A program made the translations under genes and the position numbers. DNA of 64,000 bases, from contig JAUFOR010000008.1 in assembly GCA_040285745.1 (NCBI GenBank), positions 930,001 through 994,000 on the forward strand. The letters are read 5' to 3'. The DNA comes from Barthelona sp. PCE. Its lineage: Eukaryota. The first letter of the stretch is position 1, and each line of letters starts with the position of its first letter. Below are positions 21,572 through 56,262 of this stretch, piece by piece. The notes under the pieces were generated by a model. That model was not told the DNA's origin. It saw only the letters and a program-made list of their open reading frames with translations, and did no database searches.

Positions 21572-21673
21572 ATTATTATGAAATGAGGAAAAATTGTGAT
21601 TTCAGATTTTTTACTTCCTTCAAGCGGTGCTGCTCGCTGCAGGGGCGCGGGCCAATTCACATTACAAAACAAT

Positions 21674-22393
21674 TTATTCCTCAATGCCGTATTGGCAGAG
21701 ATCGTCGACCAAACACTTGGGGGTCTTGATTCCGTAGTTACCAGAGATGTCAACGTGCTTGCACGAGTCGTGGGCGGCGAGGGAGCCGCACAGCTTGTAA
21801 TCAACCTTGCTCAAATCGTTGTCGGAGACGTCAACGGTCATAATGTGATCGTTAAGATCAGGGAGAGTGCCGTGGAGGTCGTTGTCGGACATATCGAACA
21901 CCTTGAGCTCGTTAAGGCACTTTACCCAGGGAGTGATGGTGCCGTCAAGATCGAGGCCGGACCAGTCGATTTCAACAACCTTGCCGGACTTGCAGGTAAC
22001 GCCGTAGTAAGGAGGTGTGTTGGCATCGTAGTAGGCACCGGAGTCATCGAGATCACAGACCTTGGGGAGCTTGATGCCCTTGAGGTGCTTGTGGAAGTGG
22101 GGGAAAGAGTGCTTCTTGCAGTACTTGCCCTTGGCGGTGAACCAGAGCTTGAAAAGAACCTGCTCTTCTGTAACCTTTGAACAATCTATCTTGCATGGCT
22201 TGGGCTTGGGCTTGGGCTTGGGGGGATGGCAGGGGCGGCACTTCTTGTAACACTTGCCGTATCTGCAGTGACGGCGACACTTGGGGCGGCAATTGGGCTT
22301 GTGGTGGTACTCGGTTTCTTCTTCGTACTCGTAGTTGGTCGCGACTGCGGCAACAAGCAGCAGTGCGAGGCAGAATATGGCAAATTTACGCAT
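21674..22393 (-). CDS. Secreted Cys-rich LRR protein, cyst-wall-protein-like (copy 2)
   Basis: Translation identical to 1574-2293. Confidence 0.85.
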   Translation of the reverse strand: MRKFAIFCLALLLVAAVATNYEYEEETEYHHKPNCRPKCRRHCRYGKCYKKCRPCHPPKPKPKPKPCKIDCSKVTEEQVLFKLWFTAKGKYCKKHSFPHFHKHLKGIKLPKVCDLDDSGAYYDANTPPYYGVTCKSGKVVEIDWSGLDLDGTITPWVKCLNELKVFDMSDNDLHGTLPDLNDHIMTVDVSDNDLSKVDYKLCGSLAAHDSCKHVDISGNYGIKTPKCLVDDLCQYGIEE

Positions 22394-22913
22394 CTTGTAT
22401 CAGCAAATTGAATGAGGTGAGAAACTTGAATCTGAGCCTCAACCAAGGCATTCATATTCATGGAATTTTTGGGTGGCGTGGGGCGTTTTTCCTTTATACG
22501 TCCGTGGCTTCGGCGCCACAAGCGAGCCCCACGCTGGTTGTGGGAAAATGTGTAAATGCCAATCTGAGCTGAGCTGTAGGTTTCTTCGGTAAGCGGGCGA
22601 CGGTGGCGGTGTGGTGGGCGGGTGCTGCGACCGCTGGGACGCGTGCTAATTCGAAACTGTAAATGAGCCTTTCTGCAGATGTCGCGATGCGGCTCCCTCA
22701 CGGCGCCCACGTGGCCTATGTGTGAGCTCCCATGCACAGGGACCGCGCAAGATGCAGTGCTGCCTCGTATTGGGACGATACGCGTGCGCCCGCTGCCAGC
22801 CGATTCCTGGCCATGTGGCGTGTTGGCGTGGGTGCTCCGGATGGGTGCGGCCGTGGGCGCGGCCGGGAGGCGGCTGACGAGCGTATTCCATTTTCCAGCC
22901 TTTTTCATCGCAT

Positions 22914-23717
22914 ATGTCATCTTCTGGGCAGGGAACGCCTTTCAGCGGCAGAGAACGCGTGTTCGACCCGGGCATGGTGCACAGCGGGCGGTACGCGTCT
23001 CGGTACGAGGGCTTTCTTGCGTTCCGCACTCCCGACGCGATACACATTTTCGAGCGGGTAGATGGCGGCTCATACGCCGCGGTGCACACGCACGCCGCCC
23101 CGCAGGATGCGCTCTTCTGCATAGCCGAAAACGGCACATTCGCCGTCGCTGCCAGCCGCAGCTTGTCAATCGGCACCGTCTCTGCCGCATCGGTCGTGGC
23201 GCGCGATGACCTTGGCGATGGTGAGCTCGAGGCGCTGTGCATCTCCGACGAGGGAGCAGTATCAGTAGTCACCGCCGGCCGCTTCCGGATCGTGCAGCTG
23301 ATGGGACACGGTGCCGAGACAACGGCCGACGTTGCGCTCGAGGACGGGGTGCTATGGGCTGGGTTCAGCAGGGACAGCAAGGATGTGTTCCTCGTGTGCC
23401 GCTCGAATGTATCGCGTGTTCGTGACGGGCTTGTGCTTCGCGGACAGGCGCTACCCTACGGTGTGCGCTCAGAGCACCTGCAGGTTCACGGCGATGCGGA
23501 CTTCAAGAGTCTGGTCATGATCGATCCGGTTGAGGGGTATGCGTTGTGCCTGCGCGGGCGTTTCGAGCTCGGAGGCGAGTTCAGGCGAGTGAGCAGGGAC
23601 TGCCTCAGCGTGTACGTTGCGCGTGACGGCTTCATCCACGAGGTCTCGATCAGGCAACTGAAACCAGTGAACTCTTCGCTCGGCACTGAGGCATGTGGCT
23701 CAGCATGCCGATTGTAA
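22914..23717 (+). CDS. Hypothetical 267-aa protein, possibly a degenerate beta-propeller (copy 2)
   Basis: Translation identical to 250-1053. Confidence 0.6.
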   Translation: MSSSGQGTPFSGRERVFDPGMVHSGRYASRYEGFLAFRTPDAIHIFERVDGGSYAAVHTHAAPQDALFCIAENGTFAVAASRSLSIGTVSAASVVARDDLGDGELEALCISDEGAVSVVTAGRFRIVQLMGHGAETTADVALEDGVLWAGFSRDSKDVFLVCRSNVSRVRDGLVLRGQALPYGVRSEHLQVHGDADFKSLVMIDPVEGYALCLRGRFELGGEFRRVSRDCLSVYVARDGFIHEVSIRQLKPVNSSLGTEACGSACRL

Positions 23718-23787
23718 ACAGACCACACCAGACAGGAGGCATCCAACGGTGAAAGCGAAGCGGTTTTAACTTTACCTCCGTTTCCAA

Positions 23788-24484
23788 ATGCAACCCGCTT
23801 ACAAAGACATTGGGCAGCCCTCACCACTGACAGTCGAAGACGAGATGTTCCTCGGGTTCGTCTCCAAGCTTTACTCCGTCGTTTCCGCTCAGCTCCTCCC
23901 TCACGGCCGTTATCGCCGGTGTCATGATGGCGCTCCGCTCCACCCTCTTCTCCAACATTGAGAGCCTGAGCGGACTCCTCCTCGGATCCATCATCGTCAT
24001 GTTCGTCTCCCTCATCATGCTCTTCTGCTTCAGCCGCGTCCACCCCATGAACGTCATCCTCCTGACGGTGTTCACTGGCGCGACCGGCTTCCTCGTCGGC
24101 TTCTGCTGCATGCTCTACGATACAGAGACTGTCGTCACCGCAGGCATCATCACGATGTTCCTCTTCTACACGCTCACTGTCTACACATACCGCAGCGCCA
24201 CATACAGCGTCATGAGCCAGTGCTTAACCCTCCTGCTCGCCGCACTCGTCGGCTACATTGCCCTCATCTTCATCCCTCTGTCCTTCGACATGTTCTACAA
24301 GCTGTACTGCATCCTGGGCGCGCTCGTGTTCTCGATCTACATCGTTGTCGACACGTACTTCATCCTCACGCTGGGCAGACTATGCCCCAGCAGCCAGGAG
24401 GACGTGTACACATTTGCTGCCATCATCTATCTGGACATCATCAACCTCTTCCTCAAGATTCTCGCCCTCCTTGGCAAGAAGTAA
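23788..24484 (+). pseudogene. TMBIM/Bax inhibitor-1 family gene with a +1 frameshift (real, or consensus error)
   Basis: ATG at 23788; extra C at 23898-23900 relative to the left copy. The downstream frame has HPMNVILLTVFT, GALVFSIYIVVDT and AAIIYLDIINLFLKIL motifs. Confidence 0.75.
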
Positions 24485-38052: not shown

Positions 38053-39200
38053 GCGATATGGGGCTTTGAAGGGATATAGTGAAGAAAAACAGTTAAACAG
38101 AACTCTAATTGGTTTATTAATATTTACAACCAACATGAGTGGGTGAATGTGCATTAGACATTGTTAAAGCTGACTTTTGCATGTCAGCTTAGTGTTTTGT
38201 TATTTTGAGACTTAAGAAGAAAAGGCAACTTAAGATTTGTGGAGTTTTCAATGGTTATCAGACGATATTTATCGAGCAAAAAAGCGATTTAACAGTATGG
38301 TAATACATAAATATAATAACAATAGCAGTTATTCTTTTGATGAAGTGGTTACGCTTTGCAACTATATAAAAAACGAATAACACCCATAACCATTTCGGTG
38401 AGTTTTCTTATTGTAAAGGAAAGCTTATAATTAAGAAAATAAACTAGAAAAATTGAATGCAGGGGGCATTATAGCTAGTGCTTAAGCTTCATAGAATCGA
38501 ACAAAAAGTTTTTGTACATACAGTATTACCATCAGAACAGTTAAAAAAACAATTTTGAAGTTCAATTTCAAAAGCGCGCATTGCGGATGGTGGATTACAG
38601 GTTATATAACATTATCTGACGGTATACTCGCTATTAATAGGCTTTGATTCACTGAATAGAAATACAAAAAGGAGGAATTGTGGAATGTCAACTCATTTTT
38701 TTTTCGAAACTTTTGTATTTCAAGATTTGGATCCTGTAGTTTTCTTCCAATCCAATATTTGCAGAGCCAGGGGAGATATAAAAGCTGAAAGAAAGATTGA
38801 ATTTAATATTTTTATTTTTGTGACTAACTAAGCATGTTTTATGGTTTTTATTGAAAGTCAAGTGGTATATAATATTCCAATTAAGACATGTATTCGATGA
38901 GGAAGCTAGAAAACAATGATTTGCTTTTCTTTCTTGGAATACTGGTCCATTTCGGTTCTGCCCCTAAAAATAAAGTTAAAACATCTAATAAATGTCAGTT
39001 AGACTCCATTATGCCTATTCTTATTACAAAAAGAATGTTCAAATGAAGAGAATTTTTTTCCTGTTAATATGATGGTCTATATACAAATCAAGAGGCTGAG
39101 GCGAGTGCTTAAGGTGTATGTCCGCTGTGAACCAAGACCCTACGTCAGAGTTATCATCCTCCCTCGAAATTCTTTTCTCACCTCTTTCCATAGATATAAT

Positions 39201-39280
39201 GTATGTTGTTGGGTCTACGATCCTGTACAGCCGCTCTTGAAGGCTGTACACCTCTTCTAATACAAGATTCTAACTCTTAG
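39201..39280 (+). other. Predicted spliceosomal intron in the actin 5' UTR (80 nt)
   Basis: GTATGT...CTAACTCTTAG, ending 5 nt before the actin ATG; contains a perfect 9-bp stem. Confidence 0.65.
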
Positions 39281-39285
39281 TGAAC

Positions 39286-40702
39286 ATGAGTGATTCTCTT
39301 CTCCCTGTTGTCATTGATAATGGTATTTTTTCCTTCTAGCTGCTGAACGTGGTCCCACACTGAGTTTAAACCGGTCTGTTTCCACGTCAAGAAGTGTAGA
39401 TAAGAAAGTTTTTTTTTCTTTTTGTCTATATTCTTGTTCAGAGCTTTAGTTTGTATGATTCGTTCTAATATTTAGGTACTGGTGTATGTTTAACAACCAC
39501 GAGGTTATTCCAATCAACACATCGTTGATTTTTTTTCCTTTAGTGATTTTTGCAAATATTGTAGAGATCAAAGCGCTTGGTGCGCAGTAATTGAAGTTTA
39601 TACTAATATTTAGATGTGTAAGGCAGGCTTTGCCGGCGAAGACTACCCCAGAGCTGTTTTCCCCGCCGTTGTCGGTGTTCCCCATTCTGCCTCTTCAAGC
39701 ATGCTTGGTTACGGCAAGAAGGCCAGCTACGTTGGTGAGGACGCCCTCTCTAAGAAGGGTATCCTTACTCTGAACTATCCCATTGAGCACGGTATTGTTA
39801 CCAACTGGGATTACATGGAGCAAATCTGGCACCACTGTTTCTTCACTCAACTTTGCTGCGACCCTTCCGAGCGTCCCGTCTTGTTGACTGAAGCCCCCCG
39901 TAACCCTCGTTCCAACCGTGAGCGTATGGTTTCCGTTATGTTCGATTCCTTCGAGGTTCCCGCCACCTACGTCAAGGTTCAGGCTGTCCTCTCCCTTTAC
40001 GCTTCTGGTCGTACCATTGGTGTCGTCCTCGATTCTGGTGATGGTGTTACTCACACTATTCCTATCTATGAAGGTTTCTGTCTCAACCACGCCATTGACC
40101 ATCTTCGTCTTGCTGGTCGTGATCTCACTCACTGGCTTTCCCGCCTCCTTGAGGATCAGGGTCTCTTCCTCCGTTCTTCTTCTGAGCTCGAGGTTGTTCG
40201 TGACATGAAGGAATCCCTTTGTTACGTCGCCCTTGACTACCAAGAGGAGATGCAGAAGGCTGCTAACTCCAACTCCATTATGAAGCGTTTCGAGCTCCCC
40301 GATGGTAACGTTATTGACCTTGGTACCGAGCGTTTCCGTTGTCCCGAAGCCCTCTTCCAACCCTCTTTCGTCGGTAAGCAAGAGGCTCTTGGTGCTCACG
40401 AGATGGTCTACAAGTCCATTATGAAGTGTGACATTAACGTCCGTGCTGAGCTTTACAACTCCATTGTCCTCTCTGGTGGTTCTACTCTCTTCCCTGGTCT
40501 CGATGCCCGTGTTGAGCGTTCAGTTGCTGCTCTTGCCCCTGCTGCTATGAAGATCAAGGTCTTTGCTCCTGAAGAGCGTAGATACTCTGTCTGGTTGGGT
40601 GGTTCCGTCGTTTCTCACCTTAACTCTTTCAACTCTATGTGGATCACACGTGAAGAGTACGAAGAGTCTGGTGCTTCCATCGTCCATCGCAAGTGCTTCT
40701 AA
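39286..40702 (+). CDS. ACT: Actin (divergent), spliced join(39286..39322,39476..39483,39614..40702), 377 aa
   Basis: Splicing restores [23 protein letters not shown]; also [27 protein letters not shown] and IVHRKCF; strong codon bias. Confidence 0.93.
39323..39475 (+). other. Actin coding intron 1 (153 nt)
   Basis: GTATTT...CTAATATTTAG; required to join VVIDNG to the rest of the gene. Confidence 0.85.
39484..39613 (+). other. Actin coding intron 2 (130 nt)
   Basis: GTATGT...CTAATATTTAG, followed directly by ATG TGT AAG. Confidence 0.88.
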
Positions 40703-54825: not shown

Positions 54826-55144
54826 TGTAAAGGTAAAATCAAGAAAAGCACATTAAAGTGTTTTAAATAGCTTTACAATTCAAAGAATATGTCCGATACA
54901 CAGTATAATGAAAGACATTCCCATGTAAATGACGTTATTTAAAAGAAACCTTGTTGGATATTTTGAACTCAATTCAATAAAGTACTTATGGCATCAAGCT
55001 GCGGTATACCCTGATATCTATGGTAAAAAATCGGTGCATTGCTTTGTATATACTTCCTTATAGCTTTGAAAACGTGTTTTGCTTTAATTCACCCCATTTC
55101 AATTTATTTTTGGTTCTAAGACCTACTATAAGCATTTATAAGCA

Positions 55145-55526
55145 ATGGAAGATCTGCACAATTCAGAAGAAGTATGACGCACCTTTAGTGAAGCAAAAAT
55201 CTAACATTTATGCTCAGTTTATTTACGAAGACGTGAAGGCTATCATCACAGAATCATGCGAGACAGTCTTGAACGAAGCCACATATTCCACAGAGACAGT
55301 TGAGAAGCACACGTCTAATCTCATCGAACACGTTTTAAAGAGACTTTGCGTATTAAACAGACCATTTAAGTACATTGTATCTGCCATCATCATGCAAAAC
55401 ACAGGTGCTGGACTTCACACAGCTTGTAGTTGTTATTGGGATAATTCTAGTGATGCCCCATGTGTTCAAAGGTATGAGAATGAAGAGATGCGAGCCGTAG
55501 TGACAGTTTTCGGCCTCTTCTGCTAG
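55145..55526 (+). CDS. DYNLT1: Dynein light chain Tctex-1, spliced join(55145..55171,55212..55526) = 113 aa (alternative acceptor 55218 = 111 aa)
   Basis: MEDLHNSEE, then a GTATGA donor, then (AQ)FIYEDV...PFKYIVSAIIMQNTGAGLHTACSCYWD. Confidence 0.92.
55172..55211 (+). other. Tctex1 intron (40 nt, GT...AT; 46 nt if the downstream CAG at 55217 is used)
   Basis: GTATGA...CTAACATTTAT|GCTCAG; has an in-frame TGA if unspliced. Confidence 0.7.
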
Positions 55527-55607: not shown

Positions 55608-56262
55608 TTAGCATGAACATCCAACATCGGGATCCTGATGTACGGTATTTAGAAGATCCTCATCATCAGTTAATGTTGTGACAATAGTTTTTCTGGATGC
55701 TATCTCACGAATGATATCATTAAAAACATCTTCAACGTTTTCACCGGTGGCAGCAGAAGTTTCACGATACAGAAAACGACCTTCTTCAGCGAAACTCTTC
55801 AATTCTTCATATGAAACAACGGAAGGATTATCTTCATCTCTGATATCAGTCTTGTTACCAACAACCATGATGACAACGTCGCTACTTGTGGAGTTGCGAC
55901 AGTCAGTTAACCATCCATTAAGAGAATGGAAAGAAGAACGTACCGTAACATCATAACAAAGAACAACTGCAACAGCTGAACGGAAATAAGCTCGAACTAC
56001 GGCTCTGAACCGGTCTTGACCAGCAGTATCCCAAATTTGTACACGATAAACATTATCGTCCACCGTTGTAGTTTTGTTACCGAGATCAACGCCAATTGTG
56101 TGTGAGTTATCTAAATTGAAGTCATCGTAGCAGTACCGCGAAAGGATGGAACTCTAAATGTTATTTGCCCGTAAAAAAACATCGAAATAAAAATTTCGGA
56201 AAGAAACATACCTTTCCAACCCCACTGTCGCCGACAATAAGAAATCTGAGTGACGTGGCCAT
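55608..56262 (-). CDS. Rab-family GTPase, spliced complement(join(55608..56153,56212..56262)), 198 aa
   Basis: Splicing restores GDSGVGK|SS; also TIGVD, WDTAGQDRF, VGNKTD, ETSA and C-terminal CSC prenylation motif. Confidence 0.95.
56154..56211 (-). other. Rab intron (58 nt)
   Basis: GTATGT...ATAACATTTAG, phase 0 within the P-loop. Confidence 0.92.

Follow-up and report, generated by a model that had tools for sequence, protein, structure and literature searches.

The window, that is, the whole 64-kb stretch of DNA that was analyzed, comes from Barthelona sp. PCE (Metamonada), a protist with a tiny genome, and contains on its forward strand a gene for a Tctex1 (DYNLT1) dynein light chain that is interrupted close to its 5′ end. 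Exon 1 (55145 to 55171, +) consists of the ATG and eight further codons and encodes MEDLHNSEE, seven of the nine residues being identical to the N terminus MDDLHNTEE of the congener Barthelona sp. PAP020. The undisputed portion of exon 2 (55218 to 55526, +) ends in a TAG stop at 55524 to 55526 and matches the Pfam family Tctex-1 (PF03645) with 94.9 bits; opened at 55212, the frame reads AQFIYEDV... for 104 aa to the same stop. The exon 2 product aligns to profile positions 2 to 95 of 95 (E = 3.7e-27), and its best matches in the PDB are Tctex1 chains. Left unspliced, the exon 1 frame reaches a stop one codon past 55171; with the intron placed at codon 10 of this conserved gene, no protein can be made unless it is removed.

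The proposed intron (55172 to 55211, +) is 40 nt long, lies in phase 0, and has GT-AT termini; its removal would yield a 113-aa product collinear with the homologues. The 5′ splice site is GTATGA (55172 to 55177), compared with GTATGT in the Rab intron and actin-like intron 2 and GTATTT in actin-like intron 1, all within the window. At the other end lies a combined branch and acceptor motif, CTAACATTTAT (55201 to 55211), with the presumed branch A at 55204, that agrees with TAAYATTTAG at 9 of 10 positions, the final base being T instead of the consensus G. The nearest AG after CTAACATTTAT is at 55216 to 55217 and closes the disputed hexamer GCTCAG (55212 to 55217), which represents either Ala-Gln codons (AT acceptor) or the final 6 nt of a 46-nt intron (AG acceptor). 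The frame is kept by both acceptors, with 113 aa resulting from AT and 111 aa from AG; at the mRNA level, the end of exon 1 would be joined to GCTCAGTTT in the GT-AT case and to TTTATTTAC if AG 55217 is used. Borders at 55173 to 55212 (TA...TG) yield the same mRNA as GT-AT, and the two were counted as one event. An acceptor at the AG at 55187 to 55188 was also considered and rejected; it leads to an immediate in-frame TGA. The coordinates and sequence given for this intron in the sequence-only reading, with exon 1 as MEDLHNSEE and, on splicing after the AT, AQFIYEDV next and a total of 113 aa, proved correct.

Introns of two other conserved genes in the window provide the comparison for these signals. 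The Rab intron (56154 to 56211, −; 58 nt, GTATGT...AATAACATTTAG) follows 17 codons that encode MATSLRFLIVGDSGVGK, and the next exon starts at position 13 of 162 of the Ras profile. As had been pointed out from the sequence alone, the Tctex1 acceptor equals the Rab acceptor in all but its last base (CTAACATTTAT versus AATAACATTTAG). In the Rab gene, a second AG directly follows the acceptor (TTTAG/AG; 56154 to 56152, −), and only the first AG, the one at the fixed distance, keeps the frame. In the actin-like gene, intron 1 (39323 to 39475, +; 153 nt, GTATTT...TTCTAATATTTAG) and intron 2 (39484 to 39613, +; 130 nt, GTATGT...ATACTAATATTTAG) are separated by an 8-nt micro-exon, GTACTGGT (39476 to 39483, +), that joins exon 1 (...VVIDN-G) in frame to MCKAGFAG. 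Removal of the two introns rebuilds the N terminus as ...VVIDN-G / T-G / MCKAGFAG, with exon 3 starting at position 15 of 410 of the Actin profile (Pfam Actin, E = 1.7e-123). Each of the Rab and actin-like introns is needed to rebuild a conserved N terminus. Micro-exons of 8 nt are easily missed by gene finders. A further candidate, an 80-nt 5′-UTR intron of the actin-like gene (39201 to 39280, +; GTATGT...TTCTAACTCTTAG), was recognized from its motif and spacing; it ends in CTAACTCTTAG, that is, TAAY + 4 nt + AG, 5 nt before the ATG at 39286.

Folding is more stable than in shuffled sequences for the long introns (actin-like intron 1, z −3.82, and thus structured; actin-like intron 2, z −2.48; the 5′-UTR candidate, z −2.12) and not for the short introns (Rab, z −0.33; Tctex1, z +0.20). 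The folding of the long introns echoes the internal stem-loops of long introns in Giardia, Spironucleus, and Trichomonas (PMC6679479).

Three copies of TAAYATTTAG occur in the window, and all three are homology-supported intron ends (Rab and actin-like introns 1 and 2). The more general arrangement TAAY + 4 nt + AG is found in all four AG-ending introns or candidates. The spacing argument made from the sequence alone holds up against these comparators, with AG 55217 lying 6 nt past the register kept in 4/4 of them. Seen against the hallmarks of the fused introns of metamonads, the Tctex1 locus has an extended GTATGT-like donor, GTATGA at 55172, and lacks the terminal AG, with AT at 55210 to 55211. 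The series CTAAC + ATTT + AT ends at 55211, in the register of the three TAAYATTTAG intron ends, a correspondence that is lost if the acceptor is AG 55217. With both strands of the window counted, CTAACATTTAK has a single copy where 0.08 would be expected, and at least one match appeared in 8 of 100 shuffles; the context of the motif says more than this count.

A version of the motif with a non-G end, TAAYATTTAH, has four matches in the window including that of Tctex1, and among them only the Tctex1 copy has a donor 40 nt before it and a homologous ORF after it. The other three were rejected as ends of non-AG introns: donor-like sequence is absent within 300 nt of the copies at 2389 and 44274, and the copy at 38118 lies antisense inside a 1,025-codon ORF. 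A second non-AG intron candidate was not found in the 64-kb window by motif scanning and inspection of ORF leaders, and the leaders of four ORFs with a late first ATG did not contain a donor plus the motif. Scans of the window for introns with a TAAC requirement returned mostly chance matches, and the pattern GTATG...YTAACNNNNAG had no match in it; the Rab branch sequence is ATAAC, and that of the actin-like gene is CTAAT.

Comparison with homologous proteins bears directly on the position of the acceptor. Two orthologues from Barthelona sp. PAP020, the closest relative for which there are data (EukProt EP00792, P004918 and P005126, from Trinity transcripts), are both 113 aa long, start with MDDLHNTEEAHFIQEDV, and continue as ...TEE-AH-FIQEDV, with Ala-His in place of the Ala-Gln that in-frame GCT CAG encodes in the window. 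Because these proteins are derived from transcripts, the spliced mRNA of the congener carries Ala-His at the disputed place. For a wider comparison, 20 homologues that start with M and have 105 to 125 aa were taken from the 43 proteins collected, excluding P0001 and P0002, and aligned. Both disputed columns are occupied in 19 of the 20, the exception, P0031, having an unrelated N terminus; in this alignment, the AG product is the only Tctex-like N terminus that is gapped at these columns, by two residues. A profile of the 20 homologues scored the AT product at 163.9 bits and the AG product at 155.5 (8.4 apart); when the two PAP020 sequences were removed from the profile, the scores were 146.2 and 138.6 bits (7.6 apart).

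The length of Tctex-1/DYNLT1 and the N-terminal spacing before its Phe, likewise, are those of the AT product (113 aa, gap-free). Collinearity with human DYNLT1, which the sequence-only reading had put forward, is supported by the 113-aa PDB chain 8j07_l8 (“Dynein light chain Tctex-type 1”), which aligns without gaps to the exon 2 product from 2->11 to 102->111, the register of the AT product. This register implies that nine residues precede query residue 1, equal to the nine codons of exon 1. The N-terminal length does vary slightly within the family (P0021 has 111 aa, and P0004 has 116 aa), so that a loss of two residues need not be lethal. Taken at the protein level, these comparisons show that the acceptor of the Tctex1 intron lay at 55211, at least ancestrally, and that the GCT and CAG codons have been under coding constraint.

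The best database match of the exon 2 product is a deposited model from the same organism, KAL0230342.1 (“hypothetical protein PCE1_003903 [Barthelona sp. PCE]”; 111 aa; P0002 in the protein set), and a script comparison showed it to be letter-for-letter identical to the GT(55172)-AG(55217) product. Gene-model tools of the kind used for this annotation admit, by default, canonical intron ends only. The gene models of PCE were produced with HISAT2, GeneMark-ET, AUGUSTUS, and PASA (PMC11316075). As the annotation tools model only canonical ends, the deposited model cannot discriminate between the two acceptors.

The intron architecture at this locus resembles that of the fused branch point/3′ splice site (BP/3′SS) introns of Giardia, Trichomonas, and Spironucleus (e.g., ACTAACACACAG), which are short, lie near the 5′ end of the gene, and combine a GTATGT-like donor with a CTAAC-type branch joined to the acceptor, like that of Tctex1 (PMC6679479, PMC13548475, PMC3510501). 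With the AT end, the branch A of the Tctex1 intron would lie at −8 from the 3′ end, which is the register of ACTAACACACAG. The Barthelona introns have ATTT as the spacer, or CTCT in the UTR candidate, in place of the CACA of these introns, and the Tctex1 copy differs in that it ends in AT.

The donor consensus of U12-type introns is RTATCCTT, from which the Tctex1 donor GTATGACG (GTATGA) departs, and the Tctex1 branch motif is U2-like. The likeness of the Tctex1 proposal to U12-type introns (AT-AN, GT-AT) lies instead in the choice of the 3′ site by strict distance from the branch and in the tolerance of non-AG ends (PMC1557818). GT-AT is a splicing-competent U12-type end, with seven cases catalogued, some of them conserved between human and mouse (Sheth et al. 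2006, PMC1557818). A parallel between metamonad and U12-type introns has been drawn before (PMC6679479, PMC3510501); Giardia possesses AT-AC and CT-AG introns, and its fused motif was called a U12-like property (Hudson et al. 2012, PMC3510501). In the window, the branch-to-acceptor spacing is strict in 4/4 AG-ending introns or candidates; the tolerance of AT is putative. A genome with U12-type introns would also be expected to encode U11, U12, U4atac, and U6atac snRNAs; in the 64 kb of the window, neither Rfam families nor tRNAs were detected.

A mammalian U2-type GT-AT intron, that of DGCR2, shares with Tctex1 a good U2-type donor and the AT terminus and is conserved across species (PMC1557818); unlike the Tctex1 intron, introns of this type are long, have a polypyrimidine tract, and lack a fused branch/acceptor motif. 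Closer phylogenetically are two Type A candidates of Giardia duodenalis, #36 (GT-AT, in the DinF gene) and #32 (CT-AT), which, like the Tctex1 intron, come from a metamonad, belong to the Type A motif class, and end in AT; both are 30 nt long (PMC10711314, Table 1). In contrast to what is proposed for Tctex1, they are spliced rarely (1.3% and 12.1%), and their positions are non-conserved (PMC10711314). Judging from the U12-type and U2-type cases (PMC1557818) and those of Giardia (PMC10711314), T is a recurrent non-AG end of G-start introns across systems. The splicing factors Slu7, Prp18, Prp22, and U2AF are not mentioned in the available text of Hudson 2019 (PMC6679479).

The best-supported reading, which we hold at somewhat better than even probability on the strength of these sequence comparisons, is that the Tctex1 intron is a GT-AT intron and that two residues are probably missing from the deposited model. 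A single 40-nt phase 0 spliceosomal intron, 55172 to 55211, would be removed, T as its last base giving the GT-AT termini; the position of the second splicing step would be set by a constant interval of 7 nt between the branch A at 55204 and the 3′ end downstream of it. With exon 2 opening at GCT CAG, the protein would have 113 aa and be collinear with its orthologues, and the deposited 111-aa model, which uses AG 55217, would be an artefact of gene finders restricted to canonical ends. We infer that ligation takes place at the AT and that this site is used efficiently.

Placement of the 3′ site by distance has precedents among metamonads: the BP-to-3′SS distance is invariant in Giardia (PMC6679479), and in Trichomonas vaginalis, splicing was abolished when the branch motif was moved 2 or 7 nt upstream (PMC6679479, citing Vanacova 2005). 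Against the AT end stands the case of Spironucleus vortens Rps15, where the 3′ site is displaced by 15 nt and a stem-loop has been proposed as a bridge (PMC6679479); given that this gene uses a displaced 3′ site, the metamonad spacing is not absolute. In the Tctex1 intron, no stem-loop bridging the branch point and AG 55217 was found (−4.1 kcal/mol, z +0.20), which favors the AT end. Weighing against it, the low splicing of the AT-ending candidates of Giardia, 1.3% and 12.1% (PMC10711314), suggests that a related system may accept AT only poorly. Finally, conservation marks a past acceptor, and the DNA would look no different after a recent G-to-T change with splicing moved to the CAG 6 nt downstream. 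The proposal of a GT-AT intron with a distance-set acceptor, as made from the sequence alone, is therefore sustained in part: the comparison puts the acceptor at 55211 and makes the 111-aa model the odd one out, but the conservation speaks for the former site only. Metagenome contigs contained no match to an mRNA junction probe (the end of exon 1, a gap of 0 to 6 nt, and TTTATTTACGAAGAC), and among 138 pattern matches from a protein-guided scan (P0001) of these contigs, none was confirmed by tblastn.

The foremost alternative, possible although we consider it less probable, is a shift of the acceptor. A G-to-T change in the PCE lineage would have destroyed the AG at 55210 to 55211, the spliceosome would now use the AG at 55216 to 55217, formerly the end of a Gln codon, and the true protein would have 111 aa and lack Ala-Gln; both sites might also serve as alternative 3′ ends. 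In well-studied spliceosomes, the loss of an AG by mutation usually results in the use of a nearby cryptic AG, which counts for such a shift, and AG 55217, just 6 nt downstream, preserves the frame. In yeast, the second-step factors Slu7, Prp18, and Prp22 come into play only when the branch lies farther from the acceptor. The model deposited by an RNA-seq-trained pipeline is exactly the AG product, which would favor the shift, but it carries no weight either way given tools that consider only canonical ends. The inefficient splicing of the AT-ending Giardia candidates (1.3% and 12.1%; PMC10711314) and the differences of a few residues among the N termini of the family are in accord with a shift as well. 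A 55210, at the canonical −8 from AG 55217, makes a weak substitute branch site conceivable, but its context, TTTAT, lacks the TAA core found in 5/5 motifs.

The shift also violates the TAAY + 4 nt + AG spacing of 4/4 other introns or candidates, and changes of +2 and +7 nt in the branch-to-acceptor distance abolished splicing in T. vaginalis (PMC6679479). On the protein side, it removes two residues that are present in 19/20 homologues, at a profile cost of 7.6 to 8.4 bits, and the GCT Ala codon is still intact.

An error in the consensus sequence would provide a simpler account: if 55211 is really G, the gene has an ordinary GT-AG intron and a 113-aa protein, the acceptor becomes a perfect TAACATTTAG, identical to that of Rab, and the comparative data are explained equally well. 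This is very improbable. The 10.2-Mb assembly, in eight contigs, is based on 66x Nanopore coverage and 308x Illumina coverage, with Nanopolish and Unicycler used for polishing (PMC11316075), such that substitution errors in unique sequence should be rare; furthermore, with G at this position, canonical-only tools would be expected to choose 55211, yet the deposited model uses 55217. Least probable of all, with hardly any weight, are other gene structures, either a 22-nt GT-AG intron (55172 to 55193; 119 aa, with six extra residues) or an intronless form starting from an ATG near 55020, both open in frame, the latter as a 181-codon open frame (54981 to 55526): the 22-nt intron lacks the TAAY branch motif, is far below the 58 to 153 nt of the other introns, and would insert QKSNIY, found in no aligned homologue, and the intronless form replaces the conserved MEDLHNSEE, 7/9 identical to PAP020, with a hydrophobic leader that none of the homologues has.

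Beyond this one gene, the preferred GT-AT reading would extend to a general property of splicing in this organism, an extension that is speculative and rather unlikely to hold in full. In the reduced Barthelona spliceosome, a ruler measured from the branch adenosine might alone determine the second step, with the terminal G dispensable; GT-AT introns, possibly together with others that lack AG, would in that case be spliced efficiently and constitutively, and gene finders confined to canonical ends would systematically get them wrong throughout the 10-Mb genome and in related metamonads.

The novelty claimed for the intron in the sequence-only reading was overstated, as a constrained branch-acceptor distance has been described in Giardia, Trichomonas, and Spironucleus (PMC6679479, PMC3510501), and GT-AT termini have been catalogued (PMC1557818; PMC10711314, Table 1). 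For barthelonids, no description of intron signals was found in the available text of the genome paper, which uses the word “intron” once, in its methods (PMC11316075). If AT is the acceptor in use, the conserved Tctex1 gene of this free-living metamonad would harbor a GT-AT intron that is spliced constitutively, and the locus would offer a natural experiment on whether distance or AG governs the choice of the 3′ splice site in introns with a fused branch point and acceptor. Barthelonids would then share in the “hybrid major/minor” intron properties that have been considered in Giardia. Moreover, two residues would be missing from KAL0230342.1, and the same fault might affect other models of this genome.

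Two other features of the window were observed. Upstream of the actin-like gene, approximately 1 kb (38164 to 39200) in an otherwise tightly packed stretch is devoid of long ORFs and contains neither an Rfam family nor a tRNA. Near the start of the window, a perfect inverted repeat of 2,296 nt (68 to 2363 and 21604 to 23899; 100% complementary) flanks 19.2 kb. Three ORFs of its arms were compared with Pfam, and none had a match. The arms have a G+C content of ∼59%, compared with ∼38% in the region, and the repeat could mark the termini of a large element, mobile or foreign, or be a feature of the assembly.
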